Shown here: positions 1,380 through 6,954 of the stretch, piece after piece
Layout: every line of letters begins with the position of its first letter
How positions within the stretch are numbered: the first letter of the stretch is position 1
DNA from: a virus
Taxonomy: Duplodnaviria > Heunggongvirae > Uroviricota > Caudoviricetes
IMG/VR virus record: IMGVR_UViG_3300020429_000539
Coordinates: 172,263 to 236,262 of that record
DNA: 64,000 bases
Direction: 5' to 3' (one strand)
Notes under the pieces: model-generated
Database searches by the model: none
The model's input: only the letters and a program-made list of their open reading frames with translations
What the model was told of the DNA's origin: nothing
Position numbers and translations under genes: made by a program

Positions 1380-1542
1380 CTCGAAATACATAGAGTACGG
1401 CCCAATTCACTCGAAGAAGGCTGTGGTACAAACAGTGGCTAGATACAAGGGGATGTTCGGCGAAGAGGCTGCCTACTGGGAAGTCTATGACCCGAACGCG
1501 AGAAAGAAGAGCTATGGCAATCGACGGAGACATCCTGATTGA
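1297..1542 (+). CDS. hypothetical protein
   Basis: Basic ORF MDERPYRK...; start uncertain. Confidence 0.55.
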   Translation: MDERPYRKTKKEKTPKTQYMLYYRTKPDSKYIEYGPIHSKKAVVQTVARYKGMFGEEAAYWEVYDPNARKKSYGNRRRHPD

Positions 1543-1993
1543 ATTCATTCGCGAGTCGAATGCAATCGAGAACATCCATCGTGCGCCTCGCCAGACTGAG
1601 ATCGACATCCACGAGAAGCTTCTCGCGCGAGATGAAATAATCATCGCCGACCTCGTGGAGTTCGTATGGACCGTTCAACCTGGCGCGAACCTGCGCAACA
1701 GGCTCGACATGGATGTCTGGGTTGGGCGTCACACTCCGCCGCCTGGCGGACCGGATGTTCAAGAGATGCTTGACGGTTTGCTTCAGCGCATCTCGCTCCG
1801 TGACATCTCTCCTTGGGAGGCTCATGCCACCTACGAGACGATTCATCCCTTCATGGACGGTAATGGTCGTAGCGGACGGGCACTCTGGCTGTGGCATTCT
1901 ATCCGTGATGGCGAGTTTGTTCCAGGTCGTTCGTTTCTACAGCATTGGTATTACTCAACCCTTGACCGATTCCGACTGCCGAAAAGGATTTGA
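1514..1993 (+). CDS. fic: Fic/Doc family protein
   Basis: Fic motif HPFMDGNGRSGR; N-terminal ESNAIE. Confidence 0.9.
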   Translation: MAIDGDILIEFIRESNAIENIHRAPRQTEIDIHEKLLARDEIIIADLVEFVWTVQPGANLRNRLDMDVWVGRHTPPPGGPDVQEMLDGLLQRISLRDISPWEAHATYETIHPFMDGNGRSGRALWLWHSIRDGEFVPGRSFLQHWYYSTLDRFRLPKRI

Positions 1994-2286: not shown

Positions 2287-2326
2287 AAAGAATCTGACTT
2301 TTTGGAGTGAATTACTGAAGGAGTTC

Positions 2327-2354
2327 TTGACAAGGCTCCGAAAAGGGTTAGTAT
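2327..2354 (+). promoter_or_regulatory. sigma70-type promoter upstream of tRNA-Leu cluster
   Basis: TTGACA-N16-TAGTAT. Confidence 0.6.
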
Positions 2355-2521
2355 CATGACTATGCAGAGCGTCACGCTCCATCTCGGCTTGCTGTTACTC
2401 GCGTGAGGGGACGAACCCCACCAACGCTTGCAGTACGGCAAGACCTCACCATCAAAAACTGAAGAACATACTCGCTGAACCGCTCGCTTTATAGCTGACG
2501 TTCATAATGGGCGAGTTTTAT

Positions 2522-2603
2522 GGCTCCATGGCGGAACTGGCAGACGCGCCGGATTCAAAATCCGGTTCCGAGAGGAGTCCCGGTTCGACCCCGGGTGGAG
2601 CTA
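2522..2603 (+). tRNA. trnL: tRNA-Leu(CAA)
   Basis: Cloverleaf, ccgga-ttCAAaa-tccgg, long variable arm, no CCA. Confidence 0.95.
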
Positions 2604-2636
2604 TTGACTCTCGTCAACAGATGAGAGCTACTTTTA

Positions 2637-2718
2637 GGCCCTGTGGCGGAATGCAGACGCGCCTGCCTCAGAAGCAGGTTCCCGAAAGGGAGTGAAGGTT
2701 CAAATCCTTCCAGGGTCA
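2637..2718 (+). tRNA. trnL: tRNA-Leu(CAG)
   Basis: cctgc-ctCAGaa-gcagg, long variable arm. Confidence 0.95.
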
Positions 2719-2720
2719 TT

Positions 2721-2888
2721 ATGAAAAAAGAGAAGGAGGTCAAACGAATTGTTCGAGATAGGCTTCTTACCAAAGAAGAGGCCGAAAAAGACGAGCAAGT
2801 CAGACAGCAGGTTGAGAAAGAATCCGATGATCTGATTCAGGGTCATTTACAACGTGGGTGTGGCGGAATGGCAGACGCGCCACCTTGA
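2721..2888 (+). CDS. small charged ORF between tRNAs, runs into tRNA-Leu(GAG)
   Basis: MKKEKEVKRIVRDRLLTKEEAEK...; may be a gene remnant. Confidence 0.35.
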   Translation: MKKEKEVKRIVRDRLLTKEEAEKDEQVRQQVEKESDDLIQGHLQRGCGGMADAPP

Positions 2889-2936
2889 GGTGGTGGTTCC
2901 CGAAAGGGAGTGGAGGTTCGAATCCTCTCATCCACA
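2854..2936 (+). tRNA. trnL: tRNA-Leu(GAG)
   Basis: ccacc-ttGAGgt-ggtgg. Confidence 0.95.
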
Positions 2937-2944
2937 TTACATTT

Positions 2945-3026
2945 GGGGATATGGCGGAATTGGCAGACGCGCCGGCTTTAGGTGCCGGTGGGGAAACCCG
3001 TGCAGGTTCGAACCCTGTTATCCCTA
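2945..3026 (+). tRNA. trnL: tRNA-Leu(TAG)
   Basis: ccggc-ttTAGgt-gccgg. Confidence 0.95.
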
Positions 3027-3031
3027 TTGAT

Positions 3032-3113
3032 GGCTCCATGGCGGAATAGGCAGACGCGAGGGATTTAAAATCCCTTTCCTTCGGGAGTCCCGGTTCGAGC
3101 CCGGGTGGGGCTA
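3032..3113 (+). tRNA. trnL: tRNA-Leu(TAA)
   Basis: aggga-ttTAAaa-tccct. Confidence 0.95.
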
Positions 3114-3148
3114 CTTCCACATAGCCTGAAGCTGCCGCGTCATGCAAC

Positions 3149-3532
3149 ATGACGGATGAGGCGTTCATCTCTTTCTTGACGGCTCTGCGAGACCGCTGCG
3201 GCGCGAAGCTGTGCGGCTCGTGGGCTGAAGGCACCCAGGACATGAAGCCGGGGATGTTCTCGGACATCGACCTCGTGGTCCGCTACACAGACCGAGAAGA
3301 AGGCAAAACACGACCCATCGAGGAGGCCATCAAGGTCTTCGACGAGTTCGGGGTTCCGTGGGACAGCCATATCGTCGGTCAGATTTCCTCTCCGCGCGAT
3401 TTGCAGACGCTCCCTCGGCCTGTAGAAGTGATGGAGTCGTCGTGGATTGCACCCAAACCTGAATACAAGCCCGAGGTCAATGTCTTTGGCGTAACGTTTC
3501 AATCGTTTCGTCGTTCGTGGAGACAGAGATGA
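3149..3532 (+). CDS. minimal nucleotidyltransferase (Pol beta superfamily)
   Basis: LCGSWAEG...SDIDLVV motif (hG[GS]x9-13DxD). Confidence 0.75.
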   Translation: MTDEAFISFLTALRDRCGAKLCGSWAEGTQDMKPGMFSDIDLVVRYTDREEGKTRPIEEAIKVFDEFGVPWDSHIVGQISSPRDLQTLPRPVEVMESSWIAPKPEYKPEVNVFGVTFQSFRRSWRQR

Positions 3533-3933
3533 GTAGTGAATACAACTGGCATATGCCATCCAATCCGAATCGTTTTGAGTTTCAACGTGCTGTCGAGGAA
3601 TGCCAGAAGGTCTGCGAATATTTGAAGACGGCAGCCACGCCGGTTCATCTTGGAGGCTGGGACGGCAGTGGAGAGCCTCTTTTTACCCCAAGCCTCATCT
3701 CCTTCAACGGTCGTCACGATTCGGCGCAGACGTTTCAGATCAGGTTCGACGGCTCGGGTCCGAACTCGTGCGACACGGACTCGCTGCAATACGACATCGC
3801 GGTTCGCTGCTGTCTTCTCATCTTCGAGGAGCAAGTGAACGGGTTCACTTACACAGGTGGTCCTAGCCGCGAGGCGTGGGAATATAGTCGGGCACTGATT
3901 GAAAATGCTCGAACTAATGCAAGTGATAGTTAG
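3529..3933 (+). CDS. hypothetical phage protein
   Basis: ATGA-coupled 134-aa ORF. Confidence 0.8.
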   Translation: MSSEYNWHMPSNPNRFEFQRAVEECQKVCEYLKTAATPVHLGGWDGSGEPLFTPSLISFNGRHDSAQTFQIRFDGSGPNSCDTDSLQYDIAVRCCLLIFEEQVNGFTYTGGPSREAWEYSRALIENARTNASDS

Positions 3934-3980
3934 ATGCTGTAGAATATATCCTTCTATCCGTTTGAAGGAGCTACAGCGTT

Positions 3981-4253
3981 ATGAGTCACGAATCAGGCAC
4001 CCACGAGCAACGTAAACCAGCTTTTCACATCAATGATCCGAATCCACTGATGGGGAACCGAATCATCGTCACGATGAACCCACTGATGGCTCGGGCTTTG
4101 TGTGACTTGCTCGACAGTGTGGAACTCGGTGAAAACGAGAGCCATATCTACGCGATGAAAAAGCATATCCGTCGCTATTATCACAAGCTCAAAGAGCAAC
4201 GCGGCGGAGTTGAGGCATCGGAGGATGTCCGCGAGGTTGTCCTCAGCGAGTGA
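3981..4253 (+). CDS. hypothetical protein
   Basis: SD GAAGGAG upstream; 90 aa. Confidence 0.75.
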   Translation: MSHESGTHEQRKPAFHINDPNPLMGNRIIVTMNPLMARALCDLLDSVELGENESHIYAMKKHIRRYYHKLKEQRGGVEASEDVREVVLSE

Positions 4254-4297
4254 ACCTATAATAACAGGTTCATCTTTTTGCCGATAATAAGAAGCTT

Positions 4298-4371
4298 GGG
4301 CGATTAACTCAGTTGGCCAGAGTGCAACCTTTACACGGTTGAAGTCGGGGGTTCGAGTCCCTCATCGCCTA
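4298..4371 (+). tRNA. trnV: tRNA-Val(TAC)
   Basis: caacc-ttTACac-ggttg, canonical D and T arms. Confidence 0.95.
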
Positions 4372-4374
4372 CGT

Positions 4375-4447
4375 AGGCCCTTAGCTCAGCGGTCAGAGCA
4401 GGGAACTCATAATTCCTTGGTCGTCAGTTCGAATCTGACAGGGCCTA
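4375..4447 (+). tRNA. trnI: tRNA(CAT), probably Ile2 (lysidine) rather than Met
   Basis: gggaa-ctCATaa-ttcct; body resembles bacterial tRNA-Ile2 (GGCCCTTAGCTCAG...CTCATAAT..TTGGTCG). Confidence 0.8.
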
Positions 4448-4563
4448 TTTTAGGGGAGCCTCGTGGAACAGGCACTTCGCGGAAGATGGGTGCTATCTCT
4501 CCGCCCACATACGATTCCGCGACAACCCCATGAGGCGTGGACGATCGGAACCTCCTGCTCCTA

Positions 4564-4634
4564 GGGGCGTTGGTTTACAGAGATGCACGATGCTTCAATC
4601 GTCGTGTGAGGGGTTGCAATCCCCCTCCGTCCCA
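4564..4634 (+). tRNA. atypical tRNA with UCA anticodon (opal suppressor/Trp-like)
   Basis: Acceptor ggggcg/cgtccc, cgatg-ctTCAat-cgtcg, T arm agggg-ttgcaatc-cccct (8-nt loop), weak D arm. Confidence 0.55.
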
Positions 4635-4637
4635 TTT

Positions 4638-4760
4638 GCGAAAGTAGCTCAACTGGTAGAGCATCTTGCCCCATGATGGAGCGTACGCGAAGTCACAGCC
4701 AGTCCGGAACGGCTGCGGGGATCAACAAGAAGGTTAGGGGTTCGACTCCCTTCTTTCGCT
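4638..4760 (+). tRNA. Gly-like tRNA with 50-nt structured insertion in anticodon loop
   Basis: gcgaaag/ctttcgc acceptor, U73, perfect D and T arms, anticodon stem tcttg/caaga enclosing 57 nt. Confidence 0.8.
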
Positions 4761-4767
4761 TTCAGGA

Positions 4768-4836
4768 CTAGGGATGGTGTAATGGTAACACAGTCCTTCG
4801 GGACAGTCTATCGAGGTTCGATTCCTCGGCCCAAGG
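4768..4836 (+). ncRNA. tRNA-like RNA whose anticodon loop is a cUUCGg tetraloop
   Basis: D arm gtgt-aatggta-acac, gtcc-TTCG-ggac, T arm cgagg-ttcgatt-cctcg; acceptor has 2 mismatches. Confidence 0.7.
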
Positions 4837-4843
4837 TCCGTAG

Positions 4844-4981
4844 CTGCTGACAAGGCCCGCAAGGGAGGGTAACAGGAACCACCCGGAGTTGAAGCCAATG
4901 TTCCAAAGCCTCTTCGGACGCGGAGAGGCAATCTGGTCAGGCGACTGACTGGAACGGCAAAGAGGCACTCGCGGTCAGCAG
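4844..4981 (+). ncRNA. multibranched structured RNA, unknown class
   Basis: ctgctgac/gtcagcag closing helix; gttcca/tggaac; gcctct/agaggc; GCAA and GCGA tetraloops; no ORF. Confidence 0.65.
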
Positions 4982-4983
4982 AG

Positions 4984-5013
4984 GCCCTCGTCTTTCGGGA
5001 CGGGGGCTTTTTT
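4984..5013 (+). terminator. intrinsic terminator of the RNA island
   Basis: gccctcgtc-tttcgg-gacgggggc-TTTTTT. Confidence 0.85.
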
Positions 5014-5143
5014 CGTGTCCCTGCTTGATTCCGCCGAGATGCTCCTGTACCGTTACCACATACGTTGCAGGACTGGCTTCATGGGCCGTGAGACGGGACG
5101 TTCCCTCTTACACAGTCAACCGCCAGCATCAAGGAGATACATC

Positions 5144-5731
5144 ATGGCGAAGAAGGCATCCACCAAGAAGACCGGCTCGAAGGCCAAACGGACTCGTCGC
5201 GTGCGGTCCACCACCCGCTCGTCCATCATCCCCGTGTGGAGCGAGGGTCGCGAGGGCAGCAACAAGAACACGACCAAGCACAACCCCGAGGCGGGCAACC
5301 CCGATTCGCTCGTGGCGCACGTCAAGGAGTTCTTCGGCACGGTCGCCAAGCGGTTCGAGGCCAACAAGGGCTACGGTCGCCAGCACATCAACAGCAACGG
5401 CGTGGTCCATCCTGACGCGGCCCTGACCAAGAGCAATCGCGCCTGCACCAAGACGGCGATTCAGTTCATCGAGGTTCTCGCGCAGCGTGCTGCCCTCGCC
5501 GGCAACAAGGAAGCCGAGGCCATTTTCGAGGGCTCGCTGGCGACGCCCGCCGAGGCCAAGAAGTTCCTCGCCGACATCGCCAAGTTCGCCCGCGAACGCG
5601 CCAACCAGATCAAGGCCGATGAGAGCCAGGCGATTCTCGATGACATCGCCAAGGACATCGGCCTCGAAGACGGCTCGTCGCTCGTGCCCGCGTCGAAGGC
5701 CAAGGCCAAGCCGAAGGCCAAGGCTGGGTGA
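5144..5731 (+). CDS. Lys/Arg/Ala-rich putative nucleic-acid-binding protein
   Basis: SD AAGGAG, MAKKASTKKTGSKAKRTRRVR N-tail, KAKAKPKAKAG C-tail, strongly biased codons. Confidence 0.85.
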   Translation: MAKKASTKKTGSKAKRTRRVRSTTRSSIIPVWSEGREGSNKNTTKHNPEAGNPDSLVAHVKEFFGTVAKRFEANKGYGRQHINSNGVVHPDAALTKSNRACTKTAIQFIEVLAQRAALAGNKEAEAIFEGSLATPAEAKKFLADIAKFARERANQIKADESQAILDDIAKDIGLEDGSSLVPASKAKAKPKAKAG

Positions 5732-5757
5732 CAGGCACCTGATTCCCCTCACAAAAG

Positions 5758-5786
5758 GCCGCGCCTGTAATGGGCGTGGCTTTTTT
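5758..5786 (+). terminator. intrinsic terminator
   Basis: gccgcgcc/gggcgtggc hairpin + T6. Confidence 0.75.
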
Positions 5787-5823
5787 CTATCCACATACGA
5801 AGATCCTGCCGATACTATTAGGT

Positions 5824-6168
5824 ATGAACGCAGACGACATTCGTAGCGCGGTCGATGAGAAGTGGTCCCCAGAGGCACGGCTGCTCATCGAGAAGGCAGC
5901 ATCAACGGTTCACGAACACGCGGAAGCCCGTGTGGAACGTGAGCGAGAACTGATTGACGCGCTCGATGTTGCTCTGAAGGAAGCGACGACTCCGTGGTAT
6001 CTGAGTCTGTGGCCGAGCAAGAAAAGGTTCCGAGCGCTTGCGCATGCGTGCAGGATCGGAGATGAAGCTGAAGAAGGAATGATGGCGTTCGCCGAGGAAC
6101 AGGGAATCCATGTCGAGGGAACGGGATATCCGGCTGATGAAGAAGGTAGCCCGCGAACAGCGTCTTGA
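5824..6168 (+). CDS. hypothetical protein
   Basis: ATG 26 nt after CCACATA 5791. Confidence 0.75.
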   Translation: MNADDIRSAVDEKWSPEARLLIEKAASTVHEHAEARVERERELIDALDVALKEATTPWYLSLWPSKKRFRALAHACRIGDEAEEGMMAFAEEQGIHVEGTGYPADEEGSPRTAS

Positions 6169-6243
6169 ACGCGAACGCGAGCATGGCCGTCTCCGTGCCA
6201 AGTCATTCGGAGGCAAACCCTCGCCCAGGGCTGACCGTCGCAA

Positions 6244-6954
6244 ATGGAAACAGAACCGCGACGACCTATGAACAGACCAAGACTCAAACTCACAATCGAA
6301 GTCCCATTTGATGCGCCGTTGAGCGGCGAGACTGTCGAGGAGAAGACTGACAAACTCCTCGATGAGGTCCGTCGTGTTTTGCCTTCCGCCGAGATGTTGG
6401 GTGCAAGGGTCGAGGCAACGACTCTGTGGGAAAAGAACGAGGCGTCTGATTCGGACGACGTTTTGCGTCTGATCGATACGGCCTTTCTTCGTCTCGTGGC
6501 TATCGCTGACATCATCGGGGTAGACACGGCAGACGTGCGACGTGACCTGACTGTGGTTCCTCACCTTGATAATCACACTTCCAAGCCCGACCCGGGTGAG
6601 GCCCACGTTGTCCGGGTGGGCAGGCTCCTTCTTTACCGCTCCTTGTTCAACGGCGTGCGAGTATGGGTCGTGAGCGGTCAGCGTCGAGATGTCGAGCCAG
6701 GCACTCATGGTGGAGATGCTTTTCTGTCTGAACAGGTACAGGTTTGCAGAGATACGGAGTTCAGGGGTGTGCTGTCAGTTCTGCTCAATGCGCTGTCCAG
6801 CGAGAAGATCAACAGCCATTTTCGCGCGCAAGTTGACGAGTCTGAATACCTGATTCAAGTCGCGGAAGATTCCTCGGCGGCGCAGACCAAGGATTGTCAA
6901 GGGTTTATGAAGGGCGGCGAAAAAAGTCGCCCAAAAACAACCCCAAGCGGTTGA
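6244..6954 (+). CDS. hypothetical protein
   Basis: 236-aa ORF. Confidence 0.7.
   Translation: METEPRRPMNRPRLKLTIEVPFDAPLSGETVEEKTDKLLDEVRRVLPSAEMLGARVEATTLWEKNEASDSDDVLRLIDTAFLRLVAIADIIGVDTADVRRDLTVVPHLDNHTSKPDPGEAHVVRVGRLLLYRSLFNGVRVWVVSGQRRDVEPGTHGGDAFLSEQVQVCRDTEFRGVLSVLLNALSSEKINSHFRAQVDESEYLIQVAEDSSAAQTKDCQGFMKGGEKSRPKTTPSG

Follow-up and report, generated by a model that had tools for sequence, protein, structure and literature searches.

The question raised by this locus is what becomes of a 123-nt tRNA-shaped gene whose anticodon stem encloses 57 nt: whether an insertion of 50 nt is removed by protein splicing to leave a decoding tRNA, or is retained in an unspliced RNA that uses the tRNA as a scaffold. 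Both possibilities had been put forward in an earlier note on this DNA, and the evidence assembled here favours the second and tells against the first. With a little better than even confidence, the gene is interpreted as an unspliced, tRNA-framed small non-coding RNA that is neither a decoding tRNA nor an intron-bearing tRNA. It lies in the window (the whole stretch of 64,000 nucleotides that was analysed), which corresponds to positions 172263-236262 of the complete genome of a marine phage (488,051 bp, with direct terminal repeats) in which ARAGORN finds approximately 70 tRNA genes and a tmRNA. The host is bacterial, because the phage carries the tmRNA and an RNase P class A-like RNA. The match to bacterial RNase P RNA class A (genome 83050-83299, minus strand, the same as L002:8050-8299) lies inside a large tRNA array and scores 53 bits against a gathering score of 100, yet its E value is 4e-14.

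The tRNA body and the module that it encloses

The gene belongs to a small-RNA operon with the following features, in which L119 and L122 designate relatives of the phage.

4505-4515, plus strand: phage-specific box CCACATACGAT ahead of the small-RNA operon, a putative promoter
4564-4634, plus strand: tRNA (anticodon UCA; ARAGORN), leading gene of the operon, 3 nt upstream of the tRNA-shaped gene
4638-4760, plus strand: tRNA-shaped gene of 123 nt, in which a 50-nt module replaces the anticodon loop of a tRNA body (Rfam RF00005)
4768-4836, plus strand: tRNA mimic with its anticodon stem capped by UUCG, 4 nt at the site of the loop (Rfam tRNA, 29.4 bits)
4844-4981, plus strand: structured RNA of 138 nt, the one constant component of the operon (identity of 83-89% in L119 and L122)
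4984-5015, plus strand: intrinsic terminator at the end of the operon (terminator-like site with a T run)

The tRNA-shaped gene and the UUCG-capped mimic are separated by 7 nt. Over the whole window, the gene matches all 71 positions (1-71) of the Rfam tRNA model with 51 bits (gathering score 29, E 5e-8), far beyond chance, and the alignment places a 56-nt insertion within the anticodon loop. By default ARAGORN overlooks the gene, and with introns allowed it returns a meaningless Leu-CAG call. The parts of the tRNA body are as follows.

4638-4644 with 4753-4759, plus strand: acceptor stem GCGAAAG/CUUUCGC, seven Watson-Crick pairs including G1-C72, C2-G71 and G3-C70
4647-4662, plus strand: D arm GCUC-AACUGGUA-GAGC, with A14, G18, G19 and A21; its stem is invariant in three variants
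4664-4668 with 4726-4730, plus strand: anticodon stem UCUUG/CAAGA, enclosing 57 nt (4669-4725) where 7 are usual
4736-4752, plus strand: T arm AGGGG-UUCGACU-CCCUU, with U54, U55, C56 and A58 (sequence and Rfam)

The variable loop is AGGUU and the discriminator is U at 4760, so that the textbook tRNA body described in the earlier note, with G1-C72, C2-G71, U73 and an anticodon stem around 57 nt, is confirmed by the sequence and by Rfam. The full set of nucleotides associated with the L shape (U8, A14, G18-G19, A21, R15-Y48, U54-U55-C56 and A58) is present in the window gene and in L122; in L119, where G15 faces U48, the R15-Y48 pair fails. There is no 7-nt anticodon loop having U33 and a purine at position 37, the loop being 57 nt long. 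No close paralogue of the gene body was found among the phage's own tRNAs, and the label 'Gly-like' rests on the GCG/CGC acceptor end and U73 only, because U73 is common among the tRNAs of this phage. The tRNA frame is genuine and subject to selection.

The minimum free energy (MFE) fold of the module is the same in all three variants of the gene, and consists of a helix (P1), two hairpins (P2 and P3) and a 5-nt bulge on the 3' side.

4669-4672 with 4717-4720, plus strand: P1 helix CCCC/GGGG, continuous with the anticodon stem's 5' strand and invariant
4674-4695, plus strand: P2 hairpin with base UGAU/GUCA, a purine-rich 3x3 internal loop GGA/GAA and the tip GC-GUAC-GC
4696-4715, plus strand: P3 hairpin CAGCC (4696-4700)/GGCUG (4711-4715) with the 10-nt loop AGNNNGGAAY
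4721-4725, plus strand: bulge of 5 nt in the 3' strand, AUCAA (in L122 ACCAA), separating P1 from the anticodon stem

After the 5' strand of P1 a single A leads into a three-way junction, and a single C stands between P3 and the 3' strand of P1. Two of these elements, the pairing of CCCC at 4669 with GGGG at 4717 and the CAGCC-N10-GGCUG hairpin, had been recognized in the earlier note and are found where it had placed them. The AUCAA bulge may be what is left of positions 34-38 (NCCAA) in a loop of the Gly type. Because the module is no more stable than shuffled sequence (z from -0.3 to -1.0), the support for its structure comes from conservation, not from energy.

Searches of Rfam by cmscan (the window at the gathering score, 2300-6500 at E 1 and 4655-4740 at E 10) returned nothing except tRNA for the gene, apart from two meaningless snoRNA matches (E 0.9 and 8), and no Rfam family, whether of ribozymes, Y RNAs or others, matched the module. 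Eight nucleotides are identical to the apex of E. coli 4.5S RNA, which is attributed to chance: the identity is unconserved in L119 and the pairing context differs. A box C/D reading in which AUGAUGG is box C was rejected for want of a box D. No 10-mer complementary to the P3 loop exists elsewhere in the genome, and the duplexes predicted with the 138-nt RNA do not surpass those of shuffled sequences.

Conservation and loss among relatives

Relatives were obtained as syntenic metagenome contigs through the protein clusters of two flanking ORFs, and one more through a DNA pattern scan. IMG/VR yielded no relatives by protein with the 238-aa or 827-aa ORF and no matches to a degenerate P2 pattern; an exact 18-mer had one chance match in public collections, inside a coding region; and a pattern search of metagenomes returned two lineages that were already known. 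The gene with its module is present in two further lineages, at L122:577-699 (identical to L124:55-177) and at L119:3367-3484; L123 is the same contig as L119, and L121 is identical to the window. There are thus three distinct sequences, 84-95% alike, and the divergence of the gene in the three lineages is about equal to that of its surroundings.

The substitutions fall within a preserved framework. In L122, the acceptor pair A4-U69 is replaced by G4-C69, a compensatory change, G31-C39 of the anticodon stem becomes G-U, and the pairs of the T stem are kept despite one-sided changes. In the module of L119, nine substitutions break none of the 15 pairs: the U-G at the base of P2 becomes C-G, the C-G at its tip becomes U-A by a double change, and a G-C of P3 becomes G-U, while the middle of the P3 loop reads CAU in place of UCC in the window. 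When nine substitutions were placed at random, all 15 pairs of the module survived in 2.8% of trials; the figure was 1% if a compensatory double change had to arise as well. Across the three distinct sequences, 98% of cells are paired and there are two double changes, but 110 of 500 shuffles did as well; with only three distinct sequences the covariation is not statistically significant. A deletion of 5 nt has also deprived the L119 copy of the 3' strand of its anticodon stem, two more mismatches occur elsewhere in its tRNA body, and it scores 31.1 bits against the Rfam tRNA model, with the module still intact. Since L119 lost this strand and kept the module, selection appears to follow the module and not a spliceable tRNA.

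In the close lineage L127-L130 (upstream ORF 91% identical), the 138-nt RNA and the terminator come immediately after the promoter box, and the UCA tRNA, the tRNA-shaped gene and the mimic are all missing. No allele of this tRNA free of the insert was found among the relatives examined. Since the whole gene is missing from L127-L130 and there is no insert-free allele, body and insert appear to have been gained or lost as one cassette. A covariance model of the anticodon stem and insert matched only the gene itself in the 488-kb genome, only L119, L122 and L124 among the relatives, and nothing credible in 100 other phage loci (best score 15.5 bits, not in a tRNA). With a single copy in this genome and none in the other phage loci searched, the module cannot be shown to work outside a tRNA.

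These data bear on the proposal that the gene is a dying, functionless tRNA whose anticodon loop took up junk DNA; this would account for a fold energy no better than that of shuffles, for the absence of the whole gene from a lineage as close as L127-L130, for the 5-nt deletion and two stem mismatches of L119, and for the uniqueness of the module in the genome. The L119 copy taken alone could be merely a decaying gene. However, decay would not be expected to leave the gene in three lineages with a divergence about that of its surroundings, compensatory changes in the acceptor stem and P2, no module pair broken by nine substitutions, the nucleotides of tertiary interactions intact in two lineages, and a place in an operon that has a terminator and a conserved promoter box of its own; loss of function is therefore considered unlikely. 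The earlier note had named homologues without the insertion, and a lack of structural conservation, as the marks of a one-off pseudogene; instead, three lineages keep the insert and their changes preserve its pairs.

The operon was compared between window positions 4450-5015, L119:3180-3870, L122:1-870 and L127:3040-3300. A box reading CCACATAGGAT occupies the position equivalent to that of the promoter box in L119, L122 and L127. The UCA tRNA is present in L119, does not adjoin the gene in L122 and L124, and is absent from L127, where the 138-nt RNA is the sole RNA between box and terminator. Behind its CCACATA(C/G)GAT box, the operon is modular between lineages that are approximately 90% identical, and the 138-nt RNA alone is constant; the UCA tRNA, the tRNA-shaped gene, the UUCG-capped mimic and an RNA of approximately 230 nt occur, are missing or stand in another order according to lineage. 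The latter RNA, which begins with gaccaggcacctggg, is downstream of the tRNA-shaped gene in L119 and upstream of it in L122. Elsewhere in the window (1487-1993, plus strand), just upstream of a tRNA-Leu cluster, is an ORF of 168 aa with a Fic/DOC domain (32 bits), the position of which is conserved in L119 and L127.

Splicing, Ro60 binding and self-cleavage as alternatives

Excision of 50 nt from the anticodon loop can produce eight different 7-nt loops, of which six have C33, two have G33 and none has the U33 that is found in all of the approximately 63 ordinary tRNAs of the phage; no canonical anticodon loop can be made in this way. Removal of 4673-4722 leaves CCCCCAA (Gly-CCC), as the earlier note had proposed, and ARAGORN assigns the products of alternative 50-nt cuts to Asp-AUC, Glu-CUC or Trp-CCA, thereby agreeing with the CTC and CCA of that note and adding AUC. 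The resemblance of the helix next to the anticodon stem to a relaxed bulge-helix-bulge (BHB), also suggested there, does not hold up. A BHB has two 3-nt bulges on opposite strands with a 4-bp helix between them, of which only the 4-bp helix is present: it is flanked on the 3' side by a 5-nt bulge and on the 5' side by one A and then the three-way junction, and the BHB cutting rule applied to this gene would leave a 9-nt loop. The splicing endonuclease EndA (PF01974) has no match in the complete 488-kb phage genome, although control genomes were matched, and Archease is absent from the complete genome as well. The genome search that had been suggested as a check thus found RtcB and not EndA: an RtcB ligase (PF01139), of the type that seals 2',3'-cyclic phosphate and 5'-OH ends, is encoded at genome 133085-134212 (plus strand, 349 bits). 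Its neighbours (L004) are a DUF6065 protein, a sigma-70-like factor (regions 2 and 4) and a NUDIX hydrolase, and it is not beside the Ro60 gene.

As a true intron, the module would be cut on both sides by an endonuclease of the phage or its host and the exons joined by the phage RtcB to give tRNA-Gly(CCC) with the loop CCCCCAA. The phage has Gly-UCC and Gly-GCC tRNAs and lacks Gly-CCC, and the spliced product would fill this gap; the GCG/CGC acceptor end and U73 suit a glycine tRNA; the 3' part of the loop, CCCAA, equals the NCCAA loops of the phage Gly tRNAs; and CCCC and CAA are unchanged across the three variants. There is also precedent, on which the earlier note was correct, for intron-containing tRNAs in huge phages, namely the unexplained 'enigmatic introns' of Lak megaphage tRNAs (PMC6784885), and many phage tRNAs in IMG/VR have insertions of 40-55 nt beside intact anticodon loops, a hint that some route of tolerance or removal exists. 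Nevertheless, the mature loop would have C33 in a phage whose approximately 63 ordinary tRNAs all have U33, there is no BHB, EndA or Archease, L119 retains the insert without the 3' strand of the anticodon stem, an intron-less allele was not found among the relatives examined, and substitutions that preserve helices of the insert are unusual for protein-spliced introns outside the splice motif. Splicing by some nuclease together with the phage RtcB finds little support and is considered doubtful, and the specific proposal that this bacterial virus has a small tRNA intron of a novel kind, lacking a BHB, cut by an unrecognized endonuclease and sealed by RtcB to yield tRNA-Gly(CCC) with C33, is slightly more doubtful. 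A group I intron was rejected: the insert is only 50 nt long, as the earlier note had objected, and has no match to Rfam Intron_gpI at E 1 or E 10.

Another possibility is that the module is a divergent tRNA/Y-RNA chimera that docks the Ro60 protein of the phage. Ro60 (TROVE and vWA_Ro60 domains) is encoded at genome 484520-485461, adjoining a gene for Hsp20, and a motif scan of the genome finds at least ten Y-RNA-like modules, several of them within tRNA bodies. Five more oversized tRNA-like genes are located elsewhere in the genome, four of which share CUUACUC-loop-GAGUCGAU...GGUUAUC, and the Y-like motif of the phage agrees with the bacterial Ro60 site GNCGAA(N)G, the vertebrate equivalent of which is GGUCCGA (PMC4201824). 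Three Y-module chimeras on the minus strand (genome 621-748, 76685-76810 and 84290-84413) appear by eye to have a complete anticodon arm after the module, with His-GUG, GCU and Cys-GCA loops that contain U33; their module is at the 26/27 junction and not in the loop. One other gene with a Y-like module (84653-84774) has it in the anticodon loop, and in the P3 loop of the module studied here the string GUCCGGAA is near to both the vertebrate and the bacterial site (PMC4201824). However, the scan that finds ten modules does not include this one: GUCCGGAA sits in a hairpin loop instead of a bulged helix, and L119 has GCAUGGAA in its place. Being both unconserved and located in a loop, the string is rejected as a sign of kinship to Y RNA. 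Furthermore, the module lacks CUUAC and the signature of this genome, RGUCGAW...GGUUAWC, neither Y_RNA nor YrlA matches it even at E 10, and the gene is on the other strand from the Y-like arrays and approximately 90 kb away. Docking of Ro60 by the module is judged very unlikely.

The module has also been considered as a hammerhead-like self-cleaving element or its relic, nicked between C4716 and G4717. Its topology is that of type I, with stem I (P1) open and two hairpins closed, and UGAUG(G/A)A follows stem I, GAA follows the second helix, and a C is just 5' of the 3' strand of stem I. The core is nevertheless wrong in all three variants, with A at the position of C3, G at that of A9 in two of the three and A at that of G12 in L122; four extra nucleotides precede stem III, stem II has just 2 bp, the predicted fold pairs UGAY with GUCA, no ribozyme family matches at E 10, and a single cut would excise nothing. 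Self-cleavage is accordingly the most improbable of the explanations considered. A separate look-alike of a hammerhead in L131, the string CUGAUGAG...CGAAAC, has no Rfam match at E 0.05.

The reading that is preferred, an unspliced RNA on a tRNA frame, is favoured because no single excision of 50 nt yields a U33 loop; because the module is kept with its pairs intact in all three lineages that have the gene; because EndA and Archease are missing from the complete genome; because the next gene is itself a tRNA mimic without an anticodon loop, in a genome that has Y-like modules and its own Ro60; and because a tRNA-shaped RNA of the relative L120 likewise bears a 70-nt extended anticodon arm. The RNA would be transcribed from the promoter box of the phage together with the UCA tRNA, the anticodon-less mimic and the 138-nt RNA. 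With acceptor, D and T arms intact, it would be excised from the precursor by RNase P and the 3'-end and CCA machinery in the manner of a tRNA, which the spacing of 3 nt and 7 nt from the flanking tRNA-like genes would fit. The predicted product is a stable L-shaped RNA of approximately 123-126 nt, in which the anticodon stem extends into the 4-bp P1 that bears the 50-nt three-way junction, with the 5-nt bulge on the 3' strand, and which would be incapable of reading codons. The junction module, with the purine-rich internal loop of P2 and the 10-nt loop of P3, would be the working part, most likely a docking site for protein or RNA, and the molecule might serve as an adaptor or decoy that joins a factor recognizing tRNA to whatever binds the module. 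The proposed adaptor role may be likened to that of Y RNAs, which tether Ro60 to other proteins.

Oversized tRNA-shaped RNAs and known systems

A pattern search of IMG/VR, in which a common D arm had to be separated from a T arm by 62-88 nt, found matches on more than 113 contigs. Among the matches listed, at least 68 different tRNA-shaped genes combine a good acceptor stem with an insertion of 40-55 nt. In 40 of the 68, the insertion precedes or interrupts the anticodon stem's 5' strand, the loop remaining normal; in nine it is in the loop, as in the gene studied here; and 19 are unclassified. In a large class (IMG/VR loci L006-L118), approximately 40 nt are inserted after position 28 or 29, within the anticodon stem's 5' strand. 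The insertion consists of a covarying 7-bp hairpin and then an invariant CAGCAA; the 7-nt anticodon loop is normal and many anticodons occur. To our knowledge, this class of phage tRNAs has not been described. Examples from IMG/VR are the following.

L021:11133-11246, minus strand: tRNA with the CAGCAA insertion
L010:6628-6745, plus strand: tRNA with the CAGCAA insertion
L044:4041-4165, plus strand: tRNA with the CAGCAA insertion

Two GC-rich tRNA-shaped genes (L046 and L092) resemble the gene studied here in their layout of anticodon stem, 3-4-bp helix starting with CC, and 4-nt bulge on the 3' side; they have a different three-way junction with the common hairpin UGGU-RAAGG-ACCA-AAA. In the syntenic RNA island of a 58%-identity relative, L120:1928-2063 (Ga0348270_1000109) is a tRNA-shaped RNA with an extended anticodon arm, made up of a 16-bp helix and approximately 50 nt more, with a fold z of -6.9; its D loop has no GG and its T loop is UUUAAUU, and therefore the contacts of the elbow are gone. 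A tRNA-Met and an ORF of 119 aa follow it directly. Oversized matches are also located in tRNA-Leu clusters of more distant relatives (L135:791-899, 109 nt, 36 bits; L131:1485-1595, 111 nt, 33 bits).

If the preferred reading of the gene as an unspliced tRNA-framed RNA is correct, then the tRNA shape is a natural carrier with which phages present other functional RNA modules, giving them tRNA-type processing, stability and access to factors that bind tRNA. Alongside the anticodon-less mimic and the Y-RNA chimeras, it would suggest that huge phages possess a toolbox of small RNAs framed as tRNAs, and oversized phage tRNA genes that have been labelled 'introns' or pseudo-tRNAs, such as those of Lak, may partly be RNAs of this kind. 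The gene offers a compact, conserved three-way junction of 50 nt. If it is spliced instead, the route of splicing is one not known in bacteria or their viruses.

A search of the literature found nothing on this module, which can be compared with five known systems. Group I introns of bacteria, which are at least approximately 200 nt long with a P3-P8 catalytic core, interrupt tRNA anticodon loops such as that of tRNA-Leu UAA (bioRxiv 10.1101/2020.01.27.920355). The anticodon loop of a bacterial-type tRNA gene is likewise interrupted here, but by 50 nt without a match to the Rfam group I model. The BHB introns of archaeal and eukaryal tRNAs are cut by EndA/TSEN and joined by RtcB (PMC4090602). 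Shared with these are the site in the anticodon loop, the 4-bp helix beside the anticodon stem, a length of tens of nucleotides and the presence of RtcB, whereas the phage gene lacks the paired 3-nt bulges and a canonical mature loop, EndA is missing, and the host is bacterial.

The tRNAs of Lak megaphages contain 'enigmatic introns' for which no mechanism was given (Devoto et al. 2019, PMC6784885). As in Lak, oversized tRNA genes occur in a phage of approximately 0.5 Mb, the insert is highly conserved between variants, and there is no known splicing route. However, the intron of Lak tRNA-Tyr is approximately 93 nt long at the canonical 37/38 site after a normal anticodon, and alleles exist with and without it (PMC6784885), whereas the insert described here is 50 nt long, a normal anticodon is missing, and no allele free of the insert was found.

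The YrlA Y RNAs (Rfam RF02553; PMC4201824) and the phage's own chimeras resemble the gene in combining a tRNA-like domain with an extra module, the docking function of which is putative here; the chimera at genome 84653-84774 is further like it in having the module within the anticodon loop and closed by a 4-bp helix, and the phage has Ro60 and RtcB, as in bacterial rsr/rtc loci. Unlike YrlA, the phage module has no Ro60-site motifs and no Rfam match, and YrlA RNA ends at the anticodon side, with its acceptor stem closed by a loop, whereas the phage gene has normal tRNA ends. Lastly, in the engineered 'tRNA scaffold', a recombinant RNA replaces the anticodon loop for stable expression in E. 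coli (the method is used in PMC3753655). The scaffold and the phage gene alike have intact acceptor, D and T arms and an anticodon stem that continues into a foreign structured RNA, and tRNA-type processing and stability are expected of the frame in both; the scaffold is man-made, whereas the phage gene is natural and conserved between lineages, with processing that is predicted.
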